From positions 4,128,001-4,192,000 of the forward strand of contig OZ244048.1 of assembly GCA_965215265.1 (NCBI GenBank): a DNA stretch of 64,000 nucleotides, read 5' to 3'. The notes beneath the pieces were generated by a model that saw nothing but the letters and a program-made list of their open reading frames with translations, was not told the origin of the DNA and ran no database searches. The translations under genes were made by a program, and so were the position numbers. The stretch comes from Candidatus Poribacteria bacterium (GTDB lineage Bacteria; Poribacteria; WGA-4E; WGA-3G). Below are positions 7,885 through 27,044 of this stretch, in pieces; within the stretch, counting starts at the first letter, position 1; each line of letters opens with the position of its first letter.

Positions 7885-7919
7885 TACAGGAGCCCCACAA
7901 CCTTTATTGGGCTCCTGTA
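7885..7919. repeat. Hairpin formed from the two termini of the dispersed palindromic repeat family
   Basis: TACAGGAGCCC ... GGGCTCCTGTA perfect 11-bp inverted repeat. Confidence 0.55.
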
Positions 7920-7939
7920 GACAAAAAGGGAGAATTACC

Positions 7940-8623: not shown

Positions 8624-8809
8624 GCACAAAACTCGCCCCATTCCATTTTTAATCAGGACGCTAAAGAACTTTACACTGAATAACTGAACACCGAGTTCAC
8701 GAATCGTTGGGCATGGAGAATGATGACGCATCAGAATCTCCTAACCTTTATAGCAGTCTTCAATCTCATGCCCGACGACTCATTTTACAGATTACAGAAG
8801 GAGTCAAAG

Positions 8810-9772: not shown

Positions 9773-10760
9773 GCGCACAAAGATCCTTTTTATCCTTATT
9801 GGGCTACTTCCTATATCTGTATGCATTGCAGCAGGAATCGGTGCCTATCAAATTTTACCATGGCGGATTCCACAAATACTACTTTTTCAGGAAGAGGGTT
9901 TCGCCGTACTAACCTATGTCCGCTTACCACGGGTTATCCTATCAGCAATTGTCGGCGCAATGTTAGCGATATCGGGTGCAACGCTCCAAGGTATCTTCCG
10001 TAATCCACTCGCCGATCCGGGCTTAATTGGTGTCACCGCCGGGGCAGGACTTGGCGCAACAATATGGATTGTCCTAGTTGGAGGCGGGCCTCTAGGCGTG
10101 TGGGGGCTTCCGCTTGCTGCTTTTGGATGTGGAATACTTGTCACAGTCGGAGTCTGGAAAATTGCCGATTCTCATGGGAACGTCCACACGGTAACCTTGC
10201 TTTTGGCAGGTATCGCGCTCAATAGCTTTGCCGGCGCAGGCATCGGCATCATGACGTTCCTCGCAGACGATGAGCAACTCCGCAGTTTAACTTTTTGGTT
10301 ACTCGGGGGTTTTGGGGGCGCGACATGGGCTGTCATTTTCATAACGTTTCCGATATCAATCCTCGGCTTATTTGTACTGCTGCGACTCGCATCTGCCCTA
10401 AATGCGATGAGCTTAGGGGAATCCGAAGCATATCACCTCGGGGTTTCAACGGAATCGTTGAAGCGACAAGCAGTTTTTGGAGTCGCCTTGATTGTCGGGG
10501 CAGCCGTTTCAGCTGCCGGCGGTATCGGTTTCGTAGGACTCATTGTCCCGCACCTCCTCCGGTTGATGGGTGGAGCAGACCATCGTTACGTTTTGCCCGG
10601 TTCTGCATTAGGCGGCGCGATACTGCTCGTGCTAGCTGATCTGCTCGCTCGAACTATTGTCGTACCTGCAGAATTGCCGGTCGGCGTTGTTACAGCACTG
10701 ATTGGCGGTCCTTTTTTTCTCTGGTTATTGCTCAGGTTTAAGCAGGAAATCTTGCTATAG
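9726..10760 (+). CDS. hmuU: Hemin ABC transporter permease (FecCD family)
   Basis: RLPR, LQGIFRNPLADPGLIGV, IGFVGLIVPH, ELPVG. Confidence 0.9.
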   Translation: MKRKDISSQQGIRKIKRTKILFILIGLLPISVCIAAGIGAYQILPWRIPQILLFQEEGFAVLTYVRLPRVILSAIVGAMLAISGATLQGIFRNPLADPGLIGVTAGAGLGATIWIVLVGGGPLGVWGLPLAAFGCGILVTVGVWKIADSHGNVHTVTLLLAGIALNSFAGAGIGIMTFLADDEQLRSLTFWLLGGFGGATWAVIFITFPISILGLFVLLRLASALNAMSLGESEAYHLGVSTESLKRQAVFGVALIVGAAVSAAGGIGFVGLIVPHLLRLMGGADHRYVLPGSALGGAILLVLADLLARTIVVPAELPVGVVTALIGGPFFLWLLLRFKQEILL

Positions 10761-10761
10761 G

Positions 10762-11055
10762 CTTTTCGTCTACAAGAGCCCGATGCCAATTGCTGTAATG
10801 TAAAATCCTTTACAAATCTCGCTCTTTCGTCTACAGGCGCCCAATAAAGGCGGATGCTATGTTAAATCCCATACAAATCTCCCTGAGCCTTTTGGTGCTT
10901 TGATTTTTAAAGACATAACCTAAGCAGGCTCCGACGAGATGTACACAGTGATTGACACAACATCAGGCATTGTGGGGCTCCAGTATACAAAAAGGCGAGA
11001 TTTACACAGTAATAAACAAAACATAAAGCGTGCTGGTACGGAGATATACGAAAAT
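10762..11055 (+). repeat. Dispersed modular palindromic repeat (two left arms, core, right arms)
   Basis: TTCGTCTACA..TACAAATCTC left arms; GACGAGAT..GGTACGGAGATATAC right arm. Confidence 0.65.
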
Positions 11056-11847
11056 ATGATTGAACTAAAACAGATCGGTTATTGCATCGGTGAGAAGTGG
11101 TTAGTCCGTAACATCAGCGTCACTATTGAAACAGGAACACTGTGCTGCCTTATCGGACCTAACGGTGCCGGTAAATCCACCCTACTGCGCTTGATGTCAG
11201 GCGAACTTGTCCCTACAACCGGCGAAATACGGCTCTTCGGCAACCCCCATCAACCGATTCACAACTACGAACCCAGAAAATTCGCCAAAATACGCGGATA
11301 CTTGCAACAAAAACGGGAGATGAACTTCCCTTTTACCAGCTTGGAGATTGTTCTGCTCGGACGCTATCCGCACCTTAACGGAAAAAAAGAGAGTCGGCGT
11401 GACGTTGAGATTGCGGAAGACGCACTCTACGAAGTTGAAGCAGATACGCTCTCCGAACGGCTCTATCTGACTTTATCCGGCGGAGAGGCAAGTCGCGTCG
11501 ATGTCGCACGGATTCTCGCACAAAGCCCCCAACTCTTTTTATTAGATGAACCCACAAATCACCTCGACCCAAAACACCAAATCCAGATACTCAATTTGTG
11601 TAAAATGCTTTGTGCGACAGGGAAAACTGTCATTACCGCAATCCATGATTTGAATCTCGCAGCGATGTATGCCGATAGGCTTTTGATGTTAAAAGACGGT
11701 GTTCCTGTAGCGTGTGGCACACCGAAAGCGGTATTAACTTTGAATCAGTTATCTGAAGTCTACGGTATCTCATTTGACATCTTGTCACATCCGAGCGGCA
11801 CCCCGTGGGTTATTCCAAAGTTAGATTGTTTTGCGAGAAAAGACTAA
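11056..11847 (+). CDS. hmuV: Hemin ABC transporter ATP-binding protein
   Basis: GPNGAGKST, LSGGE, LLDEPTNHLD, HDLNLA. Confidence 0.9.
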   Translation: MIELKQIGYCIGEKWLVRNISVTIETGTLCCLIGPNGAGKSTLLRLMSGELVPTTGEIRLFGNPHQPIHNYEPRKFAKIRGYLQQKREMNFPFTSLEIVLLGRYPHLNGKKESRRDVEIAEDALYEVEADTLSERLYLTLSGGEASRVDVARILAQSPQLFLLDEPTNHLDPKHQIQILNLCKMLCATGKTVITAIHDLNLAAMYADRLLMLKDGVPVACGTPKAVLTLNQLSEVYGISFDILSHPSGTPWVIPKLDCFARKD

Positions 11848-11964
11848 GCAGCATGCTTTGCTTGAACAAACGTTATTTCACACCAAGCGCTCTACAGAAA
11901 GTCACGAATTGCAGCTAGTCCCTACTAGAAGAGACATCCTCGCATGATACTGCAAAATCCGCGT

Positions 11965-12133
11965 TGAGTCTCGGCAAAAAAAAGTTTGCCAAAAAGTGTT
12001 GTTTTCTGATAGAATGTTTTTGTCTATTTTTTCAGAAATAAAAAAAGAGCCAAAAAGTGTTGTTTTCTGATAAACTTTACCGTTGCTATAACGGCATAGA
12101 TACTGTACATCATCGTACGAAAGGATATTTGAA
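11965..12133 (+). promoter_or_regulatory. Promoter repeats and leader shared with the inverted module at 24.6-25.3 kb
   Basis: GCCAAAAAGTGTTGTTTTCTGATA twice; homologous to the reverse complement of 25200-25285 and 24620-24685. Confidence 0.55.
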
Positions 12134-12742
12134 ATGAAAGATTGGAAGAACCCGCAAAAATGTGTGGTAGTTTTATTAGGGGGGCTGGTGTTAGTGTTTG
12201 CCTGCTACGGGCTGGTAAGAGCGCAACACGGCTTGATGCCGGCTCCCTCAGAGACGCGGCACGTCTCCCCGCCGGTTGGGGGGCTTGCAGGGCTCGAGAG
12301 TGACTTGCCTACAGTGTCCGCTGACTCGGTTTCTCCTGAAACGGTTGCAGAGTGGTTGTCGCTGTTACGTGCCAACAATGACGGCTCAGCCGTCTTTGCG
12401 CAAGGGATAGCAAACCTCGAACAGGTGCTAACCGAGATGCAGCCTGTGGCGCGGCCGCGGCTGTTAGCGAACTATCCGAATCCGTTCAACCCAGAGACGT
12501 GGATACCGTATCAGTTGGCAGTGCCAGCGGATGTAGAGGTGTCCATCTATGCGTTGGACGGGCGTTTGGTTAGGACGTTAGCGTTGGGGCATCAAGCGGC
12601 GGGCCGCTACGAGAGCAAGGCGCGCGCCGCGTATTGGGATGGGCGTAACGAGCATGGTGAGCGTGTTGCGAGTGGTATCTATTTCTATACGCTGCGTGCG
12701 GGTGATTTCTCCGCCACGCAGAAGATGTTGATAAGGAAGTAA
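12134..12742 (+). CDS. Secreted protein with FlgD-Ig / T9SS-type-A-like C-terminal domain
   Basis: Signal peptide; LLANYPNPFNPETWIPYQL...YWDGRN..GE.VASGIYFY...MLIRK. Confidence 0.85.
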   Translation: MKDWKNPQKCVVVLLGGLVLVFACYGLVRAQHGLMPAPSETRHVSPPVGGLAGLESDLPTVSADSVSPETVAEWLSLLRANNDGSAVFAQGIANLEQVLTEMQPVARPRLLANYPNPFNPETWIPYQLAVPADVEVSIYALDGRLVRTLALGHQAAGRYESKARAAYWDGRNEHGERVASGIYFYTLRAGDFSATQKMLIRK

Positions 12743-12891
12743 AGGGAGAGAGAGGTGTAAGGGGGTGTGTGCCGTCTGCGTTTGACGCGGCGGCCCCGCC
12801 TCCAAGCACTCATATTTAGCGGCGAGCATTTCGCGGCATTTAGAGGTATGTAATGTATGATAAAAACGTGTCAAAGGTTTGGAGGTGTTTG

Positions 12892-15630
12892 ATGTATGCT
12901 AAAAGCGTGTCAATGATGTTGTCGATGTTGGCGTGTGTTCTCACGGTTTTGAGTTTGGGCGTTTTGTGCAATGTGTGTGCGCAAGGGGTAAGCGTGGCTG
13001 CGGATGTCGGCATGCTTTCGGCTGTGAAAGGTGATGCGGATGTGAATGGTGATGGCCGTGTGGATATAGTGGATTTGGCCCTGGTAGCGGCGCGCCTGGG
13101 AACCCGCGGTAACAGTTCGGCAGATTTGAACGGGAATAGGGTAGTGGATATAGGGGACGTGGCGTTAGTAGCGGCGGGGTTTAACGGTGCAGCGTCTGCG
13201 CCTGCGGTGCCTGCGTCTGCGCCTGCAGGAATGGTGCTCATCCCCGCGGGCGAGTTCCAGATGGGCAGCGATGCTGCTGATGCGCGGGATAACGAGCAGC
13301 CTGTGCGGAGGGTGCATGTGGACGCGTTCTATATGGATACGCACGAAGTGACTAACGCCGAGTATAAAAGTTTTGTGCTGGCGAATCCCGAGTGGCAGAA
13401 GACGCGGATTCCACGTGCACTCCATGATGGTAATTACCTAAAACGTTGGGAAGGTAATAACTATCCAGTGGGTAAGGGGGACCATCCTGTGACGTATGTG
13501 TCGTGGTATGGTGCGATGGCATATTCTGCGTGGGCAGGGAAGCGTCTTCCAACGGAGGCGGAATGGGAGAAAGCGGCACGCGGTGGGGAGGCAGGTCTGA
13601 AGTATCCGTGGGGAGACACGATAACGCCGAACGATGCGAACTACGATAGGAATGTAGACGATACGACTTCTGTGGGGCGTTATGCTGCGAACGGGTATGG
13701 GCTGTTCGACATGGCTGGGAACGTTCACGAGTGGTGCCTTGATGAATGGGATAAGACATTTTATGCTGCGTCTCCGTCTCGTAATCCGCTGCGTGGTGTG
13801 TCTGGTAGTACGCTTGCGAATGTGGCTGAGATTGTAGCGGACTACACAGGCGTAAATGTGAACTTAAAGCGGGTTTTGCGGGGTGGTAATTGGCGTGCTG
13901 ATGCACGTTACCTGCGCGTCACCGATAGGTTCAAAAGGGAGCCGACGTTCACGGAAAGCTTCGCCGGGTTTCGTTGTGTGAGTGCAGAGCCACCGCCGGA
14001 GCTCCCCACACCGCCGGAACCACCCACACCGCCGGAGCCACCCGCACTGGAGCCGGAGCCACCCGCACCGCAGGCACCTGCAGGGATGGCACTCATCCCC
14101 GCGGGCACCTTCCAGATGGGCAGCAACGATGCCGAGGCCGATGGTGACGAGCAGCCTGTGCGGAGGGTGCATGTGGACGCGTTCTACATGGATACGCACG
14201 AAGTGACGAACGCCGAGTATAGAAGTTTTGTGCTGGCGAACCCGCAGTGGCGGAAGACGCGGATTCCGGATGCCCTCCATGATGGTAATTACCTAAGCGA
14301 TTGGGACGGTAATAAGTATCCTAAGCGTAAGGGGGACCATCCTGTGGTGAATGTGTCGTGGTATGCGGCGATGGCTTATGCGGCGTGGGCAGGGAAGCGT
14401 CTGCCAACGGAGGCGGAGTGGGAGAAAGCGGCGCGCGGCGGTTGGCTAGGGTTAAAGTATCCGTGGGGAAAGACGATATCCTCTGTGCATGCGAACTACG
14501 GTAGGAATGTAGGGGACACCCGTCCTGTGGGGAGTTATGCGGCGAACGGGTATGGGCTGTTCGACATGGCCGGCAACGTTTACGAGTGGTGCCTTGATGC
14601 GTATAATGATGATTTCTATTCTGCGTCTCCGTCTCGTAATCCGCTGAGTGGAGTGTCTGGCAGTATGCTCGCGAATCTGGCTGAGATTGTAGATAACTAT
14701 ACCAATATTGAGTCTCATCGCGTGTTGCGTGGCGGTAGCTGGTCTTTTGATTCACTCTTCCTGCGTGCCGCTAATCGCCGCGGAGATACCCCTACGGACA
14801 CCAATGGCAGCTACGGGTTCCGGTGTGCGAGGGCTGTGACTCCTTCCGTGCCGCCGGCACCTGCAGGGATGGCAATCATTCCCGCTGGTGCCTTCCAGAT
14901 GGGCAGCAACGATGCTGAGGCCCATGGTGACGAGCAGCCTGTGCACACGGTGCATGTGGGCGCGTTCTACATGGACACACACGAAGTGACGAACGCCGAG
15001 TATAAAAGTTTTGTGCTTGCGAATCCCGAGTGGCAGAAGACGCGGATTCCGGATGCCTTCCACAGAGGTAATTACCTATGGCATTGGGAAGGTAATAACT
15101 ATCCAGTGGGTAAGGGGGACCATCCTGTGACGTATGTGTCGTGGTATGCGGCGATGGCGTATGCTGCGTGGGCAGGGAAGCGTCTTCCAACGGAGGCGGA
15201 GTGGGAGAAAGCGGCCCGCGGTGGGTTAGTTGGTAAGAAATACCCATGGGGGGACACGATAACGCCGGACGATGCGAACTACGGTAATAATGTAGGCGGT
15301 ACAACGGCTGTGGGGAGTTATGCTGCGAACGGGTATGGGCTATATAATATGGCCGGCAACGTGTCGGAGTGGTGTCTTGATGCGCATAATGATGATTTCT
15401 ATTCTGCGTCTCCGTCTCGTAATCCGCTGAGTGGAGTGTCTGGCAGTACGCTCGCGAATCTGGATGAGATTGTAGATAACTATACCAATATTGAGTCTCA
15501 TCGCGTGCTGCGCGGCGGTACCTGGGGCTTTCTTTCACGAACCCTGCGTGCCGCGGATCGCATCAGGTCTTCACCAACGCACACGACCGCCTACCGCGGG
15601 TTCCGGTGTGCGAGGGCTGTTACGCCTTAA
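12892..15630 (+). CDS. Secreted dockerin + three tandem FGE-sulfatase (SUMF1/CLec-fold) domains; candidate DGR target
   Basis: DVNGDGRVDIVDL dockerin; 3x FQMGS..RLPTEAEWEKAARGG..NGYGL.DMAGNV.EW..RGG.W..GFRC; GGAGG before ATG 12892 (alternative start 12853). Confidence 0.9.
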   Translation: MYAKSVSMMLSMLACVLTVLSLGVLCNVCAQGVSVAADVGMLSAVKGDADVNGDGRVDIVDLALVAARLGTRGNSSADLNGNRVVDIGDVALVAAGFNGAASAPAVPASAPAGMVLIPAGEFQMGSDAADARDNEQPVRRVHVDAFYMDTHEVTNAEYKSFVLANPEWQKTRIPRALHDGNYLKRWEGNNYPVGKGDHPVTYVSWYGAMAYSAWAGKRLPTEAEWEKAARGGEAGLKYPWGDTITPNDANYDRNVDDTTSVGRYAANGYGLFDMAGNVHEWCLDEWDKTFYAASPSRNPLRGVSGSTLANVAEIVADYTGVNVNLKRVLRGGNWRADARYLRVTDRFKREPTFTESFAGFRCVSAEPPPELPTPPEPPTPPEPPALEPEPPAPQAPAGMALIPAGTFQMGSNDAEADGDEQPVRRVHVDAFYMDTHEVTNAEYRSFVLANPQWRKTRIPDALHDGNYLSDWDGNKYPKRKGDHPVVNVSWYAAMAYAAWAGKRLPTEAEWEKAARGGWLGLKYPWGKTISSVHANYGRNVGDTRPVGSYAANGYGLFDMAGNVYEWCLDAYNDDFYSASPSRNPLSGVSGSMLANLAEIVDNYTNIESHRVLRGGSWSFDSLFLRAANRRGDTPTDTNGSYGFRCARAVTPSVPPAPAGMAIIPAGAFQMGSNDAEAHGDEQPVHTVHVGAFYMDTHEVTNAEYKSFVLANPEWQKTRIPDAFHRGNYLWHWEGNNYPVGKGDHPVTYVSWYAAMAYAAWAGKRLPTEAEWEKAARGGLVGKKYPWGDTITPDDANYGNNVGGTTAVGSYAANGYGLYNMAGNVSEWCLDAHNDDFYSASPSRNPLSGVSGSTLANLDEIVDNYTNIESHRVLRGGTWGFLSRTLRAADRIRSSPTHTTAYRGFRCARAVTP
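15502..15630 (+). other. DGR-like variable region (VR) with invariant 3' end (IMH-like)
   Basis: Codon positions 1-2 vary and position 3 is mostly fixed when compared with paralogous segments 14719-14826 and 22262-22364. Confidence 0.65.
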
Positions 15631-15643
15631 ATCTTTACCCCGT

Positions 15644-15663
15644 CCGAGCTGCATGCAGCTCGG
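15644..15663 (+). other. GC-rich palindrome after the VR (DGR target hairpin-like)
   Basis: CCGAGCTGC-AT-GCAGCTCGG; homolog at 22200-22219 has a compensatory pair. Confidence 0.65.
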
Positions 15664-15689
15664 CTTATGCGCAGCGAAAGATAAAAGCA

Positions 15690-15735
15690 GAGGTGTGATG
15701 GTGAGTAGGCCGTGTGCCGAATGCTATCACACCTC
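15690..15735 (+). repeat. Hairpin repeat R, copy 1 (loop-E-like structured element)
   Basis: GAGGTGTGATGGT-GAGTA-GGC-CGTGT-GCC-GAAT-GCTATCACACCTC followed by a pyrimidine tract. Confidence 0.75.
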
Positions 15736-15785
15736 TTTCTCTTTCAGGCGATACCCATTTCTCCGCCTGATTTGTTTCTCTTTGC

Positions 15786-15814
15786 TTGACAATGATTCCC
15801 TGATGTGTTATCAT
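15786..15814 (+). promoter_or_regulatory. Sigma70 promoter for rpn
   Basis: TTGACA-17bp-TATCAT with TG extension; retained in copy 2 and in the minus-strand remnant. Confidence 0.55.
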
Positions 15815-15878
15815 AAATAAGAAGTAGGAGTTTTGAGAAGGGAAGCACTTGACAACTGATACGTTTTAGGAGTATAAT

Positions 15879-16979
15879 ATGCAAAAGGGGGACATCCACG
15901 ACTTTTTGTCCGAGATGTCTGTTGCGAACTTTTCCGATCGGAGTATACGCCGCTTATTAGAAAACAGGGAAAACGTCCGGGGCTTGTTAGAAATCGTTGC
16001 GGCAGAACTCGCAGCGTTGATTGACTTTGAGCATCTGGTTCCAATGAATAGGAGCCTGCTGCCCGCCACTCTCCGAGAACAAGAGGCAGACATTGTATAT
16101 CGGGTGCCCTTCAAAAGTGATAGGGATGAGGGTGCGGCAGAGCTGCTCCTCTATCTGCTGATTGAACACCAATCGACGGTAGATGAGACGATGGGATTTC
16201 GTGTGCTTTTCTACATGATGCTGATTTGGGACGCGGAGCGGCGGCGGTGGGCGGCAGAGAAGATGCCGAGAAGAGAGCGTGTATTGCCGCCGATTCTGCC
16301 CGTGGTATTTTACACGGGGGAGCGGCGGTGGGAGAAGCCACTGACACTTGAGGCGCTGATGAATTTGCCCGCGGCGCTCTCTCGATTCGTTCCGAGATTT
16401 GACATCCTATTTCTGAATCTGAAAGGCACAGACAAGGCGACGCTGACAGAGGCGGCGCATCCGTTCGGTTGGCTGATGAGAGTGCTGCAACAAGGAGATT
16501 CAGACAAAGCGTCTATAAGGCGTGCCTTAGTGGAGACTTTGACGCAGTTGGCGGCGCTTGATGCGGCGGATTCGGGGCAGCGGCGGGAAGCGATAATGTA
16601 TCTGGTATCGCTGATTGTGCATCGGCGTCCAAAGGAAGAGCAAGAAGAGTTGATAGAACTGGTAGACCGGCATACGCGTGATATGGAGGTAGCACCGATG
16701 GCAGAGACAATGGCCGAATTCCTCTTAGAACGAGGCATAGCACAAGGCATTGAACAAGGCATTGAACGAGGCATTGAACGAGGGAGAGAACAAGGGGCGT
16801 GCCAGACGGCTATCAAAAATATAACCGCCGTCCTCAACGCACGATTCCCTGACCGTGATATAGAGCCTGCTACGCAGAAACTCGAAACCCTTTCTGATCT
16901 CGAACACCTCGAGCAATTGCTGCTGATAGCCGTCAAAACCGACAGTTTTCAAGCATTCCTACAGGCGTTAGAACTATAG
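15879..16979 (+). CDS. Rpn/YhgA-like recombination-promoting PD-(D/E)xK nuclease (Transposase_31)
   Basis: LREQEADIVYRV, LLIEHQST.D..MGFR, LPPILPVVFYTGE..W; GIEQ/GIER repeats. Confidence 0.9.
   Translation: MQKGDIHDFLSEMSVANFSDRSIRRLLENRENVRGLLEIVAAELAALIDFEHLVPMNRSLLPATLREQEADIVYRVPFKSDRDEGAAELLLYLLIEHQSTVDETMGFRVLFYMMLIWDAERRRWAAEKMPRRERVLPPILPVVFYTGERRWEKPLTLEALMNLPAALSRFVPRFDILFLNLKGTDKATLTEAAHPFGWLMRVLQQGDSDKASIRRALVETLTQLAALDAADSGQRREAIMYLVSLIVHRRPKEEQEELIELVDRHTRDMEVAPMAETMAEFLLERGIAQGIEQGIERGIERGREQGACQTAIKNITAVLNARFPDRDIEPATQKLETLSDLEHLEQLLLIAVKTDSFQAFLQALEL
16698..16979 (+). CDS. Putative in-frame internal small protein RpnS (antitoxin)
   Basis: GGAGGT at 16685, ATG at 16698 in frame; conserved in all three rpn genes. 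Confidence 0.55.
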   Translation: MAETMAEFLLERGIAQGIEQGIERGIERGREQGACQTAIKNITAVLNARFPDRDIEPATQKLETLSDLEHLEQLLLIAVKTDSFQAFLQALEL

Positions 16980-17125
16980 AAACGCATGCACCGAACGCCA
17001 TGGCCGGCCCCGGGCTGCTCTTGTCGGGGTGTCAGGTAGGAACCCTACCGTTATTATGCCCTCTGACAAGCGGAGCATGGAAGGTTGCGTACTATACCGT
17101 GTGAGATGAGCCAAAGATAAAACCC

Positions 17126-17171
17126 GAGGTGTGATGGTGAGTAGGCCGTGCGCCGAATGCTATCACACCTC
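17126..17171 (+). repeat. Hairpin repeat R, copy 2
   Basis: Same as copy 1 with loop CGTGC. Confidence 0.75.
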
Positions 17172-17314
17172 TTTCTCTTTCAGGCGATACCCATTTCTCC
17201 GCCTGATTTGTTTCTCTTTGCTTGACAATGATTCACGGATGTGTTATCATAAATAAGAAGTAGGAGTTTTGAGAAGGGAAGCACTTGACAACTGATACGT
17301 TTTAGGAGTATAAT

Positions 17315-18451
17315 ATGCAAAAGGGGGACATCCACGACTTTTTGTCCGAGATGTCTGTTGCGAACTTTTCCGATCGGAGTATACGCCGCTTATTAGAAAA
17401 CAAGGAAAACGTCCGGGGCTTGTTAGAAATCGTTGCGGCAGAACTCGCAGCGTTGATTGACTTTGAGCATCTGGTTCCAATGAATAGGAGCCTACTGCCC
17501 GCCACTCTCCGAGAACAAGAGGCAGACATTGTATATCGGGTGCCCTTCAAAAGTGATAGGGATGAGGGTGGTGAGGAGCTGCTCCTCTATCTGCTGATTG
17601 AACACCAATCGACGGTAGATGAGACGATGGGATTTCGTGTGCTTTTCTACATGATGCTGATTTGGGACGCGGAGCGGCGGCGGTGGGCGGCAGAGACGGT
17701 GCCGAGAAGAGAGCGTGTATTGCCGCCGATTCTGCCTGTGGTGTTTTACACGGGGGAGCGGCGGTGGGAAAAGCCTCTGACACTTGAGGCGATGATGAAT
17801 TTGCCCGCGGCGCTCTCTCGATTCGTTCCGAGATTTGACATCCTGTTTCTGAATCTGAAAGGCACAGACAAGGCGACGCTGACAGAGGCGGCTCATCCGT
17901 TCGGTTGGCTGATGAGAGTGCTGCAACAAAAAGATTCGGACAAAGCGTCTATAAGCCGGGCGTTACGAGAGACTTTGACGCAGTTGGCGACACTTGATGC
18001 GGCGGATTCAGGGCAGCGTAGGGAAGCGATAATGTATCTGGTATCGCTGATTGTGCATCGGCGTTCAAAGGAAGAGCAAGAAGAGTTGATAGAGCTGGTA
18101 GACCGGCATACGAGTGACATGGAGGTAGCACCGATGGCAGAGACAATGGCCGAATTCCTCTTCGAACGAGGCATAGCACAAGGCATTGAACAAGGCATTG
18201 AACGAGGCATAGCACAAGGCATTGAACAAGGCATTGAACGAGGCATTGAACGAGGGAGAGAACAAGGGGCGTGCCAGACGGCTATCAAAAATATAACCGC
18301 CGTCCTCAACGCACGATTCCCTGACCGTGATATAGAGCCTGCTACGCAGAAACTCGAAACCCTTTCTGATCTCGAACACCTCGAGCAATTGCTGCTGATA
18401 GCCGTCAAAACCGACAGTTTTCAAGCATTCCTACAGGCGTTAGAACTATAG
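17315..18451 (+). CDS. Rpn family nuclease, tandem copy 2
   Basis: Near-identical to 15879 with 36 nt more of the 12-bp GIEQ/GIER repeat; internal GGAGGT-ATG at 18121/18134. Confidence 0.9.
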   Translation: MQKGDIHDFLSEMSVANFSDRSIRRLLENKENVRGLLEIVAAELAALIDFEHLVPMNRSLLPATLREQEADIVYRVPFKSDRDEGGEELLLYLLIEHQSTVDETMGFRVLFYMMLIWDAERRRWAAETVPRRERVLPPILPVVFYTGERRWEKPLTLEAMMNLPAALSRFVPRFDILFLNLKGTDKATLTEAAHPFGWLMRVLQQKDSDKASISRALRETLTQLATLDAADSGQRREAIMYLVSLIVHRRSKEEQEELIELVDRHTSDMEVAPMAETMAEFLFERGIAQGIEQGIERGIAQGIEQGIERGIERGREQGACQTAIKNITAVLNARFPDRDIEPATQKLETLSDLEHLEQLLLIAVKTDSFQAFLQALEL

Positions 18452-18597
18452 AAACGCATGCACCGAACGCCATGGCCGGCCCCGGGCTGCTCTTGTCGGG
18501 GTGTCAGGTAGGAACCCTACCGTTATTATGCCCTCTGACAAGCGGAGCATGGAAGGTTGCGTACTATACCGTGTGAGATGAGCCAAAGATAAAACCC

Positions 18598-18643
18598 GAG
18601 GTGTGATGGTGAGTAGGCCGTGCGCCGAATGCTATCACACCTC
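18598..18643 (+). repeat. Hairpin repeat R, copy 3
   Basis: Identical to copy 2; homology ends about 18663. Confidence 0.75.
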
Positions 18644-18952
18644 TTTCTCTTTCAAGCGATACCGAAGACACATACCACTCTCAAAAAAAATGGGCGTAAG
18701 TGATGATTTTGACAGAAGTAAACAAGACAAGACGATGGAGCAATCCTTGCTAAAGTTGTGTGACTCGATTTTTGGGCGGGGGCGGAGGCGCGTGGATTTT
18801 GCCTCAAAGGGGTATCCAGAACAGAATTTTTGACATCATCGGAGTCAGCCTTAACGATGACAAATCGGTCCTGCGCGATTCCCTCAAAGAGAATGAACGC
18901 CCGTGGTGGTAGATTTCACAGTGCTCGCAACTTGAAGCCTACTGAATACAGA

Positions 18953-20131
18953 TTAACGCCTTGCGTGCTGCGACTCCGCCGGCGCGCGGTAGGCAACCGA
19001 CTCAAGATGCGGGGTCTCCAACAGCACATGTCCCTCAAAACGCGAAGTCAGACAACTCTCCAAGATACCGCTAACGAGCATCGTTCGTTCCGCTGGATAC
19101 GGCGCAACCCCCGTTTCAAACAACTCCTCGATCCGCGAGATGAGACAGGCAGAATAGGTAACGTTCGGAGTCGGAGTTAGGAAAAACTGTGTAGAGACCG
19201 GCACCGGTTCATCCTTCAGTTGGGCGGCGAAGCAGTAATCGCGCACTGCACCGTTGAGCATGAGCAGGGTGGCTTTCAAACCATCGCGGTAATGAATGGA
19301 ATAGGCAGCAGGATTCTCTACAAGGCGTTGCAGCTCCCCGCCACTTAGCAGGTTTTGCGTTCTACCGTCCTCAAGCGTTAACCCGCACGGCGTGTCGCTT
19401 CTGGAGAGTGCGGCTTCTAAAAGCGCGTACGAAAAGGCCCCTGTTTCTTCCCAAACATCAGCGCCATCTACGAGCCGGACGGCAGAGACACCGGTTTCGC
19501 CGCCCCGCCGCCGTTCGAGCATGCACTGCATCGCCTCTAAGGCGTGATAATCCATCGGATCGGAACCGCCAACCCCTACCATTAGTGCCTCACTTATGTC
19601 GCAATCAAGCGGCAGTTCTACATCGGGCAATCGCCAAGTCACAGGCAGCGAGGAGCCTGCGAGCAACCCGAACTCGAGCCGGCGCGCATCGTCAACCATC
19701 TCCTTCGCCTTCTCAAAACTGTAAGAGAGGTGTTTGTCATTAAAGAGAGGCACCGCACGGCCATCCTGCTCAAAGACAGCAACACACTCCTTGAAAAAAT
19801 CGTATCGTGGATAAAGCACCTGCCCCTTTTCATTACATGGGTAATCGCCGTGTTCTCCTATAAGGAGAACCGCATCAACGGCAAGTTCATCACCACCGCA
19901 GCGGAGTGCCTCAGCAATCGTCGGATAGACAGTGAACCCGAACTCTCTCGCTCTGTCAAGACTCTGGTCACCTTCCGGTCTCTGATCAACGTAGAGCGAA
20001 ACGACCCTCATATCTGGGCGGTGCCACCTGCCTTTATGCGGATACCCCACGAGGAATCGATCCGCGAAGTGTTGTGCGTGCGATAGATAACGGTAGATAG
20101 TGGTAATAACAGCGATCCGTTTGGTAGCCAT
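18953..20131 (-). CDS. Conserved hypothetical protein (Rossmann / Gfo-Idh-MocA-like N-terminus)
   Basis: SHAQH..DRFL.GY, VDAVLLIGEHGDYP.N.KGQ.LYPR, FNDKHLS, AGSSLPVTWR; GGAGG RBS. Confidence 0.8.
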   Translation of the reverse strand: MATKRIAVITTIYRYLSHAQHFADRFLVGYPHKGRWHRPDMRVVSLYVDQRPEGDQSLDRAREFGFTVYPTIAEALRCGGDELAVDAVLLIGEHGDYPCNEKGQVLYPRYDFFKECVAVFEQDGRAVPLFNDKHLSYSFEKAKEMVDDARRLEFGLLAGSSLPVTWRLPDVELPLDCDISEALMVGVGGSDPMDYHALEAMQCMLERRRGGETGVSAVRLVDGADVWEETGAFSYALLEAALSRSDTPCGLTLEDGRTQNLLSGGELQRLVENPAAYSIHYRDGLKATLLMLNGAVRDYCFAAQLKDEPVPVSTQFFLTPTPNVTYSACLISRIEELFETGVAPYPAERTMLVSGILESCLTSRFEGHVLLETPHLESVAYRAPAESQHARR

Positions 20132-20154
20132 GCGTCCCTCCAGGGCCGGCGTAC

Positions 20155-21348
20155 TTAAGTCCGCCAGAACGTTGATTCGCGAGTAGGCTCATATCTAATG
20201 TCTAAATGCGGTGTCTCCTGCTTTTCCCCACCTGCGAAGCAACTATCAACGCCGGCTGCAACGAGTCCGGTTGTTAACAGTGTCCGCTCAACAGGATAGG
20301 GTACCCGACCTGTTTCAAACATTTTCTCAATGTTGTTAACCAACGGCGAGAAGAAGTTTGCTAACGTTGTACGGACGGGCGGCATCGGGAGATACATCTG
20401 CGTTGAAAGCACCGTATTATCAGTGCCGATAGTAGCAGCGAAGTTGAAGTCTTGCACCAACCCATTCATCAAAAACATCGTGGATTTTAGGCCGTCATAG
20501 TGTTCATAGTGATAAGCGATCGGGTCTTTCACAAGCTCTTTCAGCTCATCTAACGTCGGGAAGATGTCGTTAAATCCAGCACGCGAAGGGGTGAGCGTAT
20601 GACTCCGACAGAGCGCGGCTTCAAACAGCTCACGCGACCAGAGTTGGGCGTGGTATGCTTCCCAAAAGGTTTCACCGCGATATGCTTGTAGCCATTTAAC
20701 ACCGGTTTCGCCACCTTTACGCCGCTCTACCATACACTGAAGCGTCTCTAAGGCGTGGAAATCGTAACTATCTATACCGCCATAGCCAACACACACCGCC
20801 TCTGAAACCGGGACATCGTAGGGCATCTCAATTGAAGGAGTGCGCCACGTAACGGGCAGAGAGGATCCCGCCATAAACGGGAAATCCAGCTCTTGGGAAA
20901 TGTCATACATCTCGCGTGCCCACTCCCAATTCCACGAGAGATGTTTATCATTAAAAGTCGGGACACCGCGACGGCTCCGTTCGTAAACCTCAGCCATCTC
21001 CTTGAAGTGTTCGTAGCGCGGATAGAGACGTTGCCCCTTCTCGTTAGCCGGATAATCTCCGTGCTCGCCGATAAGTAGCACCCCATCGACAGCGAGTTTA
21101 TCACCGCCGAGCGTCAACGCCTCCGCAATTGTAGAATATGCCGCTACTGACGGATAACGTCCCAACCGTTCGCGGCTCAAGTCGTTTTCACCGAGCTGCT
21201 CAACATATAGAGAAACGAGCTGCATCTCCGGATAGTGGTGGCAGCTATTCCAACCGTAGCCTTCCAAGAACCGATCCACGATATGTTGTGCATGCGAATA
21301 TTTGTGATAAATTGTCGCAATCGCTGCGATTTTGGGACGTGTTTTCAT
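20155..21348 (-). CDS. Conserved hypothetical protein, paralog of 18953
   Basis: Same motifs; AAGGAGG before ATG 21348. Confidence 0.8.
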   Translation of the reverse strand: MKTRPKIAAIATIYHKYSHAQHIVDRFLEGYGWNSCHHYPEMQLVSLYVEQLGENDLSRERLGRYPSVAAYSTIAEALTLGGDKLAVDGVLLIGEHGDYPANEKGQRLYPRYEHFKEMAEVYERSRRGVPTFNDKHLSWNWEWAREMYDISQELDFPFMAGSSLPVTWRTPSIEMPYDVPVSEAVCVGYGGIDSYDFHALETLQCMVERRKGGETGVKWLQAYRGETFWEAYHAQLWSRELFEAALCRSHTLTPSRAGFNDIFPTLDELKELVKDPIAYHYEHYDGLKSTMFLMNGLVQDFNFAATIGTDNTVLSTQMYLPMPPVRTTLANFFSPLVNNIEKMFETGRVPYPVERTLLTTGLVAAGVDSCFAGGEKQETPHLDIRYEPTRESTFWRT

Positions 21349-21435
21349 ACTTCCTCCTTTAGACCTCACAAGACTTCATTTTTTCTGCACAATTCTAATA
21401 AGGCGTATATTAAACTCTTTACAACGAGATTTAAA

Positions 21436-21533
21436 TCCTCTGATGTTTTGTATCATAACCTAGAAAGGCTCAGACGAGATTTGTGCTAGGTTTTTCAAAA
21501 ACATCAGGTGGTGACGTGCTGCCGTAGCCGAAA
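21436..21533 (-). repeat. Dispersed palindromic repeat family (left arm + core)
   Basis: GGCTCAGACGAGATTTGTGCTAGG is the reverse complement of the left-arm motif. Confidence 0.5.
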
Positions 21534-21754
21534 ATCTCGCCATGCCATGCATTATCCACATCCGAAAGTGTCCACGTGTCTTTGAAAGCAGCCCCTGCCG
21601 CCTGGCTTCCGATAGGCGCTCAGTGAAGCCACCATCAGGGTTCCGTTTTGAGAAGGTCCGAAAGAGGACGGAATCCTTTAAATTTGAACCATTTTTTTCG
21701 CTCTACCGTCTGAAGTTACTTTCACTGTTATTAATCTGTGAGACAGATTCCGCA

Positions 21755-21842
21755 GTTTTCCTGATTTTCTAATAAGCAGCGTATACTCCGGTCCGGAAAG
21801 TTCGAAACAGACATCTTTGACAAAAAGTGCCGGATGTCCTCC
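21755..21842 (-). pseudogene. 5' remnant of an rpn gene
   Basis: Reverse complement GGACATCC..ACTTTTTGTC..GATGTCTGTT.CGAACTTT..CGGAGTATACG..GCTTATTAGAAAA matches the first ~90 nt of rpn 15879; preceded by the homologous promoter region. Confidence 0.75.
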
Positions 21843-21976
21843 TTAAACGCGACAGGGGCATGCGTTTTTTTCCTCAAAACTTATACTTTTTATTTATAAT
21901 AACACATCCGTAAATCATTTTCAAGCAAAGAGAAACAAATCAAGCAGAGAGAAATCTGCATCGCCTCAAAGAGAAA

Positions 21977-22022
21977 GAGGTGTGATAGCATTCGGCACAC
22001 GGCCTACTCACTATCACACCTC
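21977..22022 (-). repeat. Hairpin repeat R, copy 4 (inverted)
   Basis: Reverse complement of R with a G-U to A-U change in the stem. Confidence 0.75.
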
Positions 22023-22181
22023 AGGTTTTATCTTTCGCTGCGCATAAAACGAGCCGCACAAGATACGGGTTGGCCCAGCACAAAACCGAACCGGGTTCAG
22101 CACGCACCAAGCAAAAAATAAGCAGATAATTAACAGATAGTTAATATTTTACCCTATTTATAACGCTTTTTTAACTATTAG

Positions 22182-23348
22182 TTAATAAATTATGCCGACC
22201 CGATCTGCACGCAGATCGGAAGGGGTAAAGGAGTAAAGATTTAAGGAGTTACAGCCCTCGCACACCGGAACCCGAGGAGAAGCCCGTGACGTAGGTGCAT
22301 TCCCGTAGCGATTAGCGGCGCGCAGGGCGTGCATTAAGTCCCAGCCACCGCCGCGCAACACGCGACGTGACTTAACATGTGTAAAGTCGTCTACAATCTC
22401 ATCCAGATTCGCGAGCATACTGCCAGACACATCACTCAGCGGATTACTAGACGGAGACGCAGAATAGAAATCCGCATTATACGCATCAAGACACCACTCC
22501 CACACGTTGCCTGCCATATCATACAGCCCATACCCGTTCGCAGCATAACTCCCCACAGCCGTTGTACCGCCTACATTATTACCGTAGTTCGCATCGTTCG
22601 GCGTTATCGTGTCGCCCCACGGGTATTTCTTACCAACTAACCCACCGCGGGCCGCTTTCTCCCACTCCGCCTCCGTTGGAAGACGCTTCCCTGCCCACGC
22701 AGCATAAGCCATCGCACCATACCACGACACCCACGTCACAGGATGGTCCCCCTTACCCACTGGATAGTTATTACCTTCCCAATCGGCTAGGTAATCACCA
22801 TCATGGAGGGCATCCGGAACCCGCCCCTTCTGCCACTGCGGGTTCGCCAGCACAAAACTTTTATACTCAGCGTTCGTCACTTCGTGCGTGTCCATGTAGA
22901 ACGCGTCCACATGCACCGTGTGCACAGGCTGCTCGTCATCCCAGGCATCAGCATCGTCACTGCCCATCTGGAAGTCGCCCGCGGGGATAAGTGCCATGCC
23001 TGCAGGTGGCGGCACTGCTTTTCCCAGGTGCCCCGCTACCAAGGTTAGGTCGAGGATATTCACAACACCATCACCGTTAACATCAGGATTCCGCTCCTCA
23101 TCGGTAACGGCCACCGCCCCAAAATGAGACGCAACCCCAGCCAAATCAAGCACATTTATGACTCCATCGCCATTGAAATCGAAAGCCTTTAGCGTCTCAA
23201 AATCCGAGGCTTTGACGGAAGGCACACTCAAAAGCATTGGTATAAAACTCAGGGTGACAAACCACATCAAGTGTCTCTGCGGCTTGGCGGGTGCCTTTGT
23301 GAAAGGAACCTCACGTGTGACAGGTTTCTGCTCCAGAATATTCTTCAT
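22182..23348 (-). CDS. Dockerin + FGE-sulfatase/CLec protein, frameshifted inside its variable region (ancestral stop at 22241)
   Basis: FGE motifs; the VR is 103 nt versus 108 nt in paralogs, so GFRCARAVTP* is out of frame. Confidence 0.8.
   Translation of the reverse strand: MKNILEQKPVTREVPFTKAPAKPQRHLMWFVTLSFIPMLLSVPSVKASDFETLKAFDFNGDGVINVLDLAGVASHFGAVAVTDEERNPDVNGDGVVNILDLTLVAGHLGKAVPPPAGMALIPAGDFQMGSDDADAWDDEQPVHTVHVDAFYMDTHEVTNAEYKSFVLANPQWQKGRVPDALHDGDYLADWEGNNYPVGKGDHPVTWVSWYGAMAYAAWAGKRLPTEAEWEKAARGGLVGKKYPWGDTITPNDANYGNNVGGTTAVGSYAANGYGLYDMAGNVWEWCLDAYNADFYSASPSSNPLSDVSGSMLANLDEIVDDFTHVKSRRVLRGGGWDLMHALRAANRYGNAPTSRASPRVPVCEGCNSLNLYSFTPSDLRADRVGIIY
22200..22219 (-). other. Palindrome after the VR of the minus-strand FGE gene
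   Basis: CCGATCTGC-GT-GCAGATCGG on the coding strand. Confidence 0.65.
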
Positions 23349-23432
23349 AGATTTTTCTCCTTTTAGAGTTGTTTAAAGCTCAGGACTTTGCCGCACTTTG
23401 CAGGCGGGCATTCTGCACCTCAAGAGAACGCC

Positions 23433-24620
23433 TTAATCGCGAATTAAGCGCAGAATGTTCTGGACGAAACGGGCTTTCGGCATTGCGCCCCCAAACTGGC
23501 CAACAATTTCACCATTTTGGAACACAATATATGCCGGTATTCCGCGCACCTGATATTTTCTGTGAATTTGCGGGTTAGAATCAATATCCAACTTCGCAAT
23601 GGCGAATGTCTTTCTGTGCTCCGATGCAACTTCGTCTACAATCGGCACCATCTGCCGGCAGAATGGGCACCAGCCTGCCCAAAATTCAACCACAATCGGG
23701 AACTCAGACTCCAACACAATCCTATCAAAAGTGGCATCCGTGACCTCAATAGGAACGCCGGTAGTGGTTTTAACACTTGTACTAAATACTATGTTAACCT
23801 CTGCTGCGTTTCCTGCAGCGTCAGTCACTTCGCCAATGATGATATAGGTAACTTCATTGTCCAGCTCTTTGCCTCTCACCAGGGTTAGGATTGCTTTATT
23901 GCCTTCAACTTTGCCTGACCAGCCGACATCATTACCGGTTTGCGTTCGCAGACCTATCCGTCCACTCACGGTTTCACTAAACTCAATTTCTATCTTCGCG
24001 CGGCTGTTAATCCTTTCAGGGTCAACGTCCCTGTCACCATCAGTGATGTCACCCCCTGTGACGGAGGGGGCTGCGGTATCTGGTTGCAGGACAGTGTAGC
24101 TCAATGTGTGGCTACCGTCAACCCAAGAGAGTGTTAAGTCTAGAGGCCCCGGAATAAAGGGACCCATAATTGTCACGATTTTACCAGCAGTAGTCACAGT
24201 GCCACTGTTCACGGTGACATCAGCCGGCGCATTGTCAAAAACAACGGTGATACTCCCATCAACGGCGAGGCGTGTCCCGCTTGTTGGCTCTATGCTAACA
24301 ACCGCTGCTGGAGGACGCACGGCTTTGCCCAGGTGCCCCGCTACCAAGGTTAGGTCGAGGATATTCACAATACCGTCACCGTTAACATCAGGATTCCGCT
24401 CCTCATCGGTAACGGCCACCGCCCCAAAATGAGACGCAACTCCAGCCAAATCAAGCACATTTATGACTCCATCGGCATTGAAATCGGAAGCCTTTAGCGT
24501 CTCAAAATCCGAGGCTTTGATAGAAACACACAACCCCGCGACAAGCAACAAGCTAAGAATAGATACAAATTTCCTATTCATTACCACGATGCCTTTTTTC
24601 GGGTTCATCCAATCTTTCAT
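23433..24620 (-). CDS. Secreted dockerin + Ig-like domains + thioredoxin
   Basis: Dockerin repeats; DTAAPSV Ig-like region; VEFWAGWCPFC..VRGIP thioredoxin. Confidence 0.85.
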   Translation of the reverse strand: MKDWMNPKKGIVVMNRKFVSILSLLLVAGLCVSIKASDFETLKASDFNADGVINVLDLAGVASHFGAVAVTDEERNPDVNGDGIVNILDLTLVAGHLGKAVRPPAAVVSIEPTSGTRLAVDGSITVVFDNAPADVTVNSGTVTTAGKIVTIMGPFIPGPLDLTLSWVDGSHTLSYTVLQPDTAAPSVTGGDITDGDRDVDPERINSRAKIEIEFSETVSGRIGLRTQTGNDVGWSGKVEGNKAILTLVRGKELDNEVTYIIIGEVTDAAGNAAEVNIVFSTSVKTTTGVPIEVTDATFDRIVLESEFPIVVEFWAGWCPFCRQMVPIVDEVASEHRKTFAIAKLDIDSNPQIHRKYQVRGIPAYIVFQNGEIVGQFGGAMPKARFVQNILRLIRD

Positions 24621-24731
24621 TTAAAAATATCCTTTCGGACGATGTGTCCGTTGTCGATGCGGTTATCGCACCAGTTAGGTTTATAAAAAGCAGCGACGAA
24701 GGTAGATGCTGCTTGAGTTAATAAAAGGGTT

Positions 24732-24762
24732 AAGTTACGTGAAGTAAGGGGGGGGGGGTCAA
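24732..24762 (-). promoter_or_regulatory. Candidate promoter with a poly-C11 tract in the spacer
   Basis: TTGACC-19bp-TAACTT on the minus strand; G11 at 24748-24758 on +. Confidence 0.4.
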
Positions 24763-24984
24763 TCGTCTTAACAGGGACTTAAAACACACGACAGCACGGC
24801 ATACGCACGCGTTCGCGCCAACACTGCAACCCCGCACCACGGGGCCAGGCACTCTGCTCTTCTGGTAAACGGACTCTCGGTGTTTCATCTCTTCGAGTTC
24901 TCGTATCTTTCAGCACATCACCGACAGATTTAATGAGTATCTTTTTACAAATCTCGCCGGAGATTTTCGCGGTTTTTCGTATTT

Positions 24985-25320
24985 TTCAGTTTAGCCGAAA
25001 ACAACGCTTTTTGTCAAACTTTTTTTCTCTGACTCAAAACGTATTTTGCATTATCGCACAACGAACGTTTTTTGGCAAACTTTTTTTCGAATTAAAAAAG
25101 GGACGAACACATTTTAGCCGAAAACAATACTTTTTGTCAAACTTTTTTTCTCTGACTCAAAGGTTAGTTTGCATTATTGCACAATGAACGTTTTTTGGCA
25201 ACTCTTTTTTCCGAAATAAAAAAGAGGCAAAAACATTCTATCAGAAAACAACACTTTTTGGCAAACTTTTTTTTGCCTGACTCAAAATGAACGTTTTTTT
25301 GTCAACTCTTTTTTCAAATT
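24985..25320 (-). repeat. Tandem ~61/122-bp promoter-like repeats
   Basis: Repeated A-tract-TTG(A/C)CA-17/18bp-(TAAACT/GATAAT/TAGAAT) on the minus strand. Confidence 0.7.
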
Positions 25321-25324
25321 TTTG

Positions 25325-25465
25325 GGTCTCTTTCAGCACGTCACCGACGGTTTTTTGGTCTCTTTCAGCACATAAGACAATGCAAAGCAGAGATTGGCTC
25401 TGACGAGATTTACACACGAGCCATCAAAGCAGAAGCGTTGACAGTACGGAGATATACAAAAAAAC
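25325..25465 (+). repeat. Dispersed palindromic repeat family copy
   Basis: GACGAGATTTACACACGAGCCATCAAAGC...GTACGGAGATATACAAAA. Confidence 0.65.
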
Positions 25466-25629
25466 GTTCCTAATTTTTGTTGATATCCTCTTCGTGATAA
25501 ACGGAAATTCGATTTTCGCTAAGTGTCCTATTGTATACTGCGGAACCGAACCTAACTCATGTTTTAGGAGACGCATCTAGTAAAGCAACACCCTATTTCA
25601 CACTCAGGGAAAGATGCAAGAATCTGAAC

Positions 25630-27034: not shown

Positions 27035-27044
27035 AAAAAAACTC

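Follow-up and report, generated by a model that had tools for sequence, protein, structure and literature searches.

Dockerin-linked FGE-type lectin genes as probable remote targets of a single diversity-generating retroelement in a Candidatus Poribacteria bacterium

The stretch of DNA described here (the window, 64,000 nucleotides) covers positions 4,128,001-4,192,000 of contig OZ244048.1 from the Candidatus Poribacteria assembly GCA_965215265.1; the genome searched is this one contig of 4,833,177 bases. The window contains two genes for dockerin proteins with domains of the FGE/C-type lectin (CLec) fold, whose C-terminal ends are very probably remote targets of a diversity-generating retroelement (DGR) located elsewhere in the genome. 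Gene A (12853-15630, + strand) encodes 925 residues comprising a hydrophobic N-terminus, a type I dockerin module (residues 63-107; 13039-13173, +) and three FGE/CLec domains, domains 1 to 3 (three FGE-sulfatase matches, E 6.5e-183 overall). Gene B (22182-23348, - strand), of 388 residues as assembled, has a hydrophobic N-terminus and, from Pfam matches, a dockerin (23025-23183) and one FGE/CLec domain (22281-23003), domain 4. The Pfam Dockerin_1 profile scores 27.9 bits (gene A) and 42.3 bits, against a cut-off of 22.9.

Each of the four domains ends in a homologous segment, as was stated in the original prediction, which was made from the sequence of the window. Aligned to the template described below, the segments lie at 13865-13981, 14714-14830 and 15497-15613 (+) in domains 1, 2 and 3 and at 22369-22258 (-) in domain 4. 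About 90 bases upstream of them are nearly identical in the four copies, and identity then collapses at the variable stretch. The 3' end that had been described as invariant in three copies is indeed shared by domains 2, 3 and 4, where GGGTTCCGGTGTGCGA is followed by GGGCTGTnACnCCTT; the end of domain 1 has diverged (GGGTTTCGTTGTGTGAGTGCAG).

No reverse transcriptase (RT) or template is present in the window, as had been noted from its sequence, and both are found elsewhere in the same genome. The genome's sole RVT_1 gene in a whole-genome profile search is at 1,420,096-1,420,737 (85.2 bits, cut-off 29.6). A later protein search for RTs added only a 25-residue fragment at 3.36 Mb, which is negligible. 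The cassette at 1.417-1.421 Mb is comprised, in this order, of an FGE target ending in ..GFRCARAVTP, Avd, RT and the template repeat (TR). It is separated from the window by 2.72 Mb along the contig, or by 2.11 Mb if the chromosome is circular. Avd is an intact open reading frame (ORF) of 118 residues (NF033474 DivGenRetAVD, 120.2 bits against a cut-off of 80), and its orthologue in a relative matches Pfam bAvd at 71.8 bits (cut-off 40). The RT, also an intact ORF, has 354 residues, and its translation contains IGNLTSQ and YVDD, which we take to be DGR RT motifs. No NCBIfam model matched the RT above its cut-off, the only matches being sub-threshold ones to group II, retron and Drt models. Relatives of the RT number 378 confirmed sequences, and a CLec/FGE ORF ending in GFRx is nearby in 75 of the 80 loci kept. 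Beyond the host family the closest of these relatives are cyanobacterial, with 55-60% identity.

The TR (1,421,030-1,421,146) is an A-rich repeat of the end of the cassette's target and lies about 80 bases 3' of the RT. Its core of 113 bases (1,421,034-1,421,146) consists of 35 adenine (A) and 78 non-A sites. Read in the frame of the variable region (VR) it gives RVLRGGSWNNNTRNLRAANRNRNTPTNTNNNNGFRCA, with 12 AAY codons and 18, 12 and 4 adenines at codon positions 1, 2 and 3, and a stop codon is unreachable by mutation in all 18 of its variable codons. The VR of the cassette's own target (the cognate VR) differs from the TR at 16 A sites and at no non-A site, and has three additional bases in the AAC run. 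The locus has the components by which a DGR is recognized: an RT by a template, an Avd and a stop-protected TR/VR pair differing at adenines only. An A-rich copy beside a DGR RT and Avd is what had been proposed as the genome check of the prediction. The template that had been written down from the variable codons of the window agrees with the real TR, counted by eye, at 82 of 87 bases, the five mispredictions being AAC/AGC, CAA/CGA, CGT/CGC, AGA/AGG and CCT/CCA. A BLAST search of the TR against the genome gave no second A-rich template, every other segment being changed at 13 or more of the 35 A sites. The presence of a second RT or TR in the genome was rejected, as neither appears in the RVT_1 search or the TR BLAST of the whole genome.

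The differences of the four segments were counted against the real TR at its 35 A and 78 non-A sites and compared by a Fisher test. Domain 4 has 17 A and no non-A changes (p=7e-11), domain 3 has 20 and 4 (83% at A sites, p=2e-9), domain 2 has 20 and 7 (p=1e-7) and domain 1 has 23 and 21 (p=1e-4). The A-site bias of the window segments is far beyond chance. The adenine signature, which had been ascribed to all four segments, is present in domains 2, 3 and 4. The pattern of domain 1, with its 21 non-A changes, reads as ordinary divergence plus a residual bias, without an adenine-specific signature. The claim that the third codon position mostly stays C or T is borne out by the comparison of the TR with domain 3 (12, 10 and 2 changes at the three codon positions) and not by that of domain 2 with domain 3 (12, 11 and 9). 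Across 12 ungapped VRs the mean entropy is 1.57 bits at A sites versus 0.20 at non-A sites.

Domain 4 is five bases shorter than the TR, and the most parsimonious alignment puts each of the five gaps at a TR adenine. The first three gaps restore the frame, the last two do not. The frame is thus lost before GFRCA, and the assembled ORF of gene B therefore runs on to 22182. Its translated end reads ...APTSRASPRVPVCEGC... in place of ...GFRCARAVTP, and the match to the FGE profile ends at position 246 of 255. To judge from its lack of non-A drift, domain 4 would be the most recently written of the window copies, yet it is frameshifted as assembled. Domain 1, by the same comparison, appears never to have been visibly rewritten.

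The C-terminal VRs are followed by a conserved 3' element, which consists of GGGCTGTnACnCCTTAAATCTT (containing the stop codon), one or two TTTACCCC-like units and a hairpin, CCGAGCTG-nnnn-CAGCTCGG. Behind gene A it extends over 15614-15663 (+), with a box GGGCTGTTACGCC resembling the initiation of mutagenic homing (IMH) site, the stop at 15628-15630, a spacer and the hairpin at 15644-15663. Behind gene B it occupies 22200-22257 (-), with the IMH-like box at 22257-22236, the stop at 22243-22241 (which the indels put out of frame), a spacer and, at 22219-22200, a perfect hairpin. This copy is one base off the element behind the cassette's adjacent VR and has T:A at stem pair 5. Beyond the shared GGGTTCCGGTGTGCGA the TR continues with AGACCC and the VRs with GGGCTGT, the arrangement expected for IMH versus IMH*. 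Domain 2 retains the first 15 bases of the IMH-like box and then continues into a linker without stop, spacer or hairpin.

The element has 26 copies in the genome, of which 24 stand behind VR matches and two are orphans behind unrelated genes. A 38-base pattern of the element occurs 25 times, and a reversed-pattern control does not occur at all. The hairpin is perfect in 11 of the 26 copies, where stem pair 5 is G:C in seven and T:A in four, a compensatory change. The two window copies have perfect hairpins (8-bp stem, 4-nt loop), which DNA folding gives as the centroid structure. The VRs with a perfect hairpin have a mean of 2.9 non-A changes (n=10) versus 7.4 in the others (n=14; Mann-Whitney p=0.001, a test that overstates the difference as the copies are related). 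The case for the hairpin lies in its conservation and one compensatory pair, and its role in homing is putative. An IMH-like box with a downstream stem-loop is thus present as a candidate target-recognition element. The two orphans, at 2,998,855 (-) and 4,393,883 (-), consist of the last ~25 VR bases, the IMH-like box and the hairpin; each lies 3' of the stop of an unrelated gene, with an Rpn-like gene coming after it.

Comparison with paralogues indicates which of the gene A segments has been rewritten. Two full-length paralogues of about 93% identity are located at 1,562,003-1,565,040 and 4,444,383-4,441,371. In 60-base steps the identity of gene A to them is mostly 0.85-1.00, apart from three lower steps near the start (0.72-0.73), and falls to 0.60-0.70 only across 15478-15597, i.e. 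in the VR of domain 3. To the paralogue at 1.563 Mb the end of domain 1 shows 98-100% identity. The VR of domain 2 is 93-100% identical across the two paralogues and one base different from the copy at 4,442,298-4,442,182. The collapse of identity being limited to the domain 3 VR, only the C-terminal VR has changed since the gene duplication. Because of this identity to the paralogues and the absence of the hairpin, domain 2 has been static since the duplications and is an old (fossil) copy. Rewriting of all three gene A domains was considered and rejected, since the identity to the paralogues falls at the terminal VR only; the picture of three independently diversified domains stacked in one gene did not survive, with domain 1 lacking the signature, domain 2 static and only the VR of domain 3 paralogue-specific. 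In another three-domain gene an internal VR (1,795,016-1,795,132) has 18 A changes and one non-A change and is not followed by a hairpin. Some genes may allow rewriting of internal VRs, unless the domain is a recent copy of a terminal one.

By the definition of a remote target in the available text of Wu et al. 2018 (only A-to-N differences, with minor exceptions, outside any other DGR), domain 4 belongs to this class: its substitutions are confined to adenines, it has the 3' element and its distance from the only RT exceeds 2 Mb, while the five missing bases break its frame. Domain 3 falls within the looser definition of Vallota-Eastman et al. 2020 (PMC7517822), as given in the part of that paper available (more than 50% identity to the TR, at the 3' terminus); under that of Wu et al. 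2018 it is a matter of judgement whether its four non-A exceptions are 'minor'. Domain 2, with seven non-A changes, no hairpin and a static sequence, and domain 1, with 21 non-A changes and no IMH-like box, are outside both the class and the part of the prediction that stands, domain 2 being a fossil and domain 1 no target. The C-terminal VRs of domains 3 and 4 are in all likelihood targets in trans of the single DGR at 1.417-1.421 Mb, because the cassette exists, the TR has adenines exactly where the VRs vary, the VRs carry the same 3' element as the cognate VR, and the C-terminal VRs alone are paralogue-specific. By analogy with the DGRs of phage BPP-1, Legionella and Treponema, a complex of Avd and RT would copy the TR RNA into cDNA with misincorporation opposite adenines. 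As in known DGRs, the cDNA would then replace a VR wherever an IMH and hairpin mark a target. Rewriting of the 18 codons, 12 of them AAY, would never create a stop and could yield about 4e17 possible peptides per VR.

The two window targets are part of a large family. The TR matches 37 VR-like segments across the genome, 24 of which adjoin the 3' element and eight of which have two or fewer non-A changes, and the genome has 58 matches to the FGE domain. Four VRs, including that of domain 4, have no non-A changes and differ from one another at A sites. Frame-breaking indels, located at A positions, are found in only two of these four. Fresh RT errors or the consensus of a mixed population would give such indels, and they count as a lead rather than as evidence. 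The VR at 4,795,100-4,795,218 lacks one base. The cognate VR (1,419,060-1,419,179) and two further A-only VRs (1,795,829-1,795,948 and 4,795,100-4,795,218) show five codons in place of the four AAC of the TR, and other VRs carry three or six additional bases elsewhere. The variants with three extra bases suggest slippage in length or the later loss of one AAC from the TR; the part of PMC12875486 available discusses slippage by multiples of three inside AAC repeats, which fits them. About 14 VRs genome-wide share non-A alleles unlike the present TR (CGT GGC GGG AGT TGG ... CGT GTC GCC), the GTCGCC part of which matches the TRs of two relatives (L008:7124-7243; L004:2607-2794). The TR of this genome thus seems, as far as these alleles tell, to have changed.

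Forty relatives formed the comparison set. Close orthologues of the RT are present in two of them, which belong to other genera of the same family: G004 (83% identical) and G024 (79%). In G004 the genome's own TR finds 26 VR-like segments. Among 20 segments examined there, the cognate one is changed at 15 A sites and at no non-A site, the others at 1-14 of 81 non-A sites, and the layout of box, stop and hairpin is similar to that described here. In the genome of the same genus, G001, there is no RT and no VR-like segment, and it has ten FGE domains versus 58 here. At the corresponding G001 locus the orthologue of window 25657-27040 abuts that of the ORF at 20155-21369; therefore the 4.3-kb segment with gene B is absent there. 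Synteny with G001 ends before gene A, and both window targets lie in DNA absent from the syntenic G001 locus. Relative to G001, window 21385-25657 is an insertion with gene B and a dockerin-Big_5-thioredoxin gene (23433-24620), and synteny is also lost across 6000-18938. Metagenome loci anchored on the ORF at 20155-21369 (the best of 26 is 82% identical) have a VR-like segment in none of the 26.

Several observations speak against recent homing in the window or weaken the case for it. Domain 4 is out of frame as assembled and may be a dead copy. Domain 3 cannot have been written very recently by the present TR, because of its four non-A differences, and about half of the VRs have not been fully rewritten since the TR acquired its present sequence, because the non-A alleles they share are different. 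In the AAC run the cognate VR and two more A-only VRs exceed the TR by three bases, so that the present TR is no exact length match to its best targets. Compared with shuffled sequences the 3' elements do not stand out in folding energy, with z-scores of -0.26 and -1.13 for the window copies and -2.36 for a third element, values that are unconvincing alone. Public sequencing runs cover the region as short assembled contigs, to which the FGE paralogues cross-map. Among the matches listed, the exact domain 3 VR, with no differences, occurs in 158-159-nt contigs of runs X3 and X7, from two studies; because of this identity the VR looks stable at the consensus level, with the reservation that one run may be the source sample. 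Again among the matches listed, contigs of X3, X4 and X1 match the flanks of domain 4 and skip a 63-72-base core, an X4 contig has two extra bases at 22327, the site of a gap in domain 4, and X4 has a loose end before 15597; each of these may come from an allele, a paralogue or the TR.

These points would be accommodated if the window VRs were relics, written in the past and no longer rewritten, with the cassette inactive, or with domain 4 a pseudogene and domain 3 drifting. The frameshift of domain 4, the four non-A changes of domain 3 and the identical domain 3 VR in contigs from runs of two studies all fit such a history, as do the 15 imperfect hairpins among 26 and the many VRs with 5-12 non-A changes, which show that decay of targets is common in this genome. 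The RT and Avd, however, are intact ORFs of 354 and 118 residues, the four VRs without non-A changes differ from one another at A sites, both window hairpins are perfect, and the indels at A positions of two of the four A-only VRs fit a mixed consensus or fresh RT errors rather than random decay. A relic state is accordingly a serious possibility, to which we give somewhat less than even weight, and the question whether homing is still going on today stands about evenly balanced.

Less probable is that another template wrote the VRs, either an earlier version of the TR or a second DGR that has been lost or resides on an unassembled mobile element. The alleles of the ~14 VRs that are unlike the present TR (..CGTGGCGGGAGTTGG.., ..CGTGTCGCC..) and partly match the TRs of G004 and G024 (..GTCGCC..) argue in this direction, as do the four non-A differences of domain 3, whose two paralogues hold the alternative allele set. 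Domain 4, on the other hand, matches the present TR at 78 of 78 non-A sites and domain 3 at 74 of 78, and at the diagnostic GCC/GTC site domain 3 has the allele of the present TR, unlike its paralogues; nor was a second RT, or a second A-rich TR copy, found in the genome. We regard authorship by another template as improbable. Ordinary diversifying selection or divergence of paralogues on the binding face of the lectin, with no retroelement involved, would explain the mild excess of changes at the same positions in domain 1 (23/35 vs 21/78), which has no DGR hallmark, and some clustering is expected on the binding face of the fold, which is made up of these positions and tolerates change. It does not account for the 0/78 non-A against 17/35 A changes of domain 4, an A-rich non-coding template adjoining Avd and RT, a conserved non-coding 3' element behind each C-terminal VR, the collapse of identity in the terminal VR only, or the lack of VR-like segments in the RT-less genome of the same genus, and is very improbable. 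Targeting of domains 3 and 4 by the DGR at 1.417-1.421 Mb thus remains the explanation preferred here.

By sequence, domain 3 is similar to solved FGEs (E 2.8e-34) as well as to T. denticola TvpA (E 6.9e-13). An AF2 model built on a 57-row alignment of CLec targets from related DGR loci has a pLDDT of 83, compared with 32.5 from the single sequence. In Foldseek the model superimposes on FGE structures with a TM score of 0.74-0.80 and on TvpA (2y3c) with E 2.4e-16 and a TM score of 0.69. The predicted fold is a TvpA-like FGE-type CLec fold, of which the VR would form the C-terminal part. The sequence ..flCheSyC.. of T. curvata FGE (6s07) faces a gap and non-Cys residues in domain 3, and the TR-encoded segment has no Cys before GFRC. 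This Cys pair is presumably the catalytic pair of FGE, which fits the PDB titles 'C336S mutant' and 'C341S mutant'. As the pair faces a gap in domain 3, the domains would be binding modules and not enzymes, and the proteins are predicted to be non-catalytic binders of the FGE/C-type-lectin fold. The genome has eight cohesin matches, and the proteins, with a signal-like N-terminus and a dockerin, probably serve as variable ligand binders carried by surface scaffolds with cohesins. One VR-bearing FGE target, at 212,062-213,420 (-), shares its frame of 509 residues with a cohesin module; therefore at least one target is a cohesin-FGE fusion and not a dockerin-FGE protein.

Other genes of the window surround the two targets. 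Directly 5' of gene A is a small ORF of 202 residues (12134-12742, +) with FlgD_ig and T9SS C-terminal sorting domains by Pfam. A FlgD_ig/T9SS small ORF also precedes a dockerin-FGE target in the DGR cassette of a relative (L008:2922-3521 before 3555-5027), which looks like a conserved gene pair. Between the Rpn-like genes described below and gene B lie two paralogous ORFs on the - strand, 18953-20131 (392 residues) and 20155-21369 (404 residues), with no Pfam or NCBIfam match. Both are conserved, with 85% identity in G001 and up to 82% in 26 metagenome loci, and are single-copy by contig depth.

Directly 3' of the domain 3 hairpin is an Rpn/YhgA-like (Transposase_31) gene (15879-16979, +; Pfam E 2.4e-27), followed in tandem by a second one (17315-18451, +; E 3.6e-28). 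Both belong to the Rpn subfamily found behind VR/TR ends. Rpn/YhgA-like genes number 24 in the genome, nine of which have a VR or TR end 274-481 bases upstream on the same strand. In eight of these nine a GGCTTATG..AAAGATAAA box stands ~255-275 bases before the start of the domain, and in four cases it is fused to the 3' arm of the hairpin. The VR-associated copies are all in one of two clades (15 rows, 91-97% amino acid identity). No Rpn-like gene stands behind the TR of G004. In a broader and more doubtful proposal, one trans-acting DGR would keep more than 20 secreted, dockerin-tethered variable lectins, and the repertoire would grow through one subfamily of Rpn/YhgA-like nuclease genes which, placed right behind the VR hairpin and the TR, would carry or recombine the VR, IMH-like box and hairpin onto new genes; we hold this combination to be rather unlikely. 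If it were true, the repertoire of a single DGR would form a hub-and-spoke, antibody-like surface set, shared by two or more genera of a Poribacteria-related family through conservation, and both the repertoire and the expansion of the target family would be absent from the RT-less congener.

Two consequences reach beyond this locus. The template was deduced from the variable codons, was found 2.7 Mb away and had been given with 94% of its bases right; therefore remote DGR targets are recognizable from sequence alone. The recognition elements decay in step with the loss of the A-only signature, and the genome is therefore a natural series on the cis features of remote-target competence. No account of DGRs in Poribacteria or sponge symbionts was found in the literature searched, where the supplementary tables of large surveys may list cases, and the host lineage appears to be new for DGRs. 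The approach of Roux et al. 2021 was, according to the available text of that study, unable to detect remote targets.

Among known systems, the DGR of Bordetella phage BPP-1 (mtd, avd, TR, brt) has in common with the present one the Avd and RT, the adenine differences between TR and VR, the AAY codons and the GC-rich end followed by divergent IMH and IMH*. In BPP-1 a hairpin with an 8-bp stem and a 4-nt loop lies just downstream of the VR, as it does here. BPP-1 differs in being phage-borne, with a single adjacent target whose Mtd CLec domain has no FGE shell, and the order here is target, avd, RT, TR.

In cyanobacteria, the available text of Vallota-Eastman et al. counts 76 remote targets over 21 genomes, all of them close to the 3' end of a CLec gene and with transposases nearby, and puts forward the activation of remote targets by cis elements, cruciforms and IMH among them. 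To the extent covered by that text, the cyanobacterial genomes have few remote targets each on average, mostly cytosolic multidomain regulators, whereas here there are dozens, secreted and dockerin-linked, with a defined and countable 3' element. Thiohalocapsa PB-PSB1, in the part of Dore et al. 2024 (PMC10907252) available, has nine loci and 15 CLec targets, with evidence of diversification in trans of remote or incomplete loci. It resembles the present genome in its many CLec targets and in the duplications and transposons that shape the loci, and differs, so far as that text goes, in having several RT classes and NACHT/STAND and other conflict-system targets, compared with the single RT and TR and the extracellular dockerin proteins described here.

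The closest parallel is the TvpA DGR of Treponema denticola, which is likewise cellular and not of phage, has CLec targets of the FGE-sulfatase type with a C-terminal VR, and has several targets far from the RT. It differs from the present system, where one TR faces 37 VR-like segments, dockerins take the place of lipoprotein signals and the host is of a Poribacteria-related lineage. For remote targets in non-phage lineages, the available text of Wu et al. 2018 gives seven as the largest number of non-adjacent targets, and includes one target with three tandem FGE domains. A target of three FGE domains is thus known from that source; here only the last domain of such a gene looks rewritten. 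In scale, one RT/TR pair with 37 VR-like segments and 26 recognition elements stands against seven in Treponema and 15 over nine loci in Thiohalocapsa, as far as the available texts go. The system is of a known kind, that of Treponema TvpA-like remote targets, with an unusually large number of targets per template.

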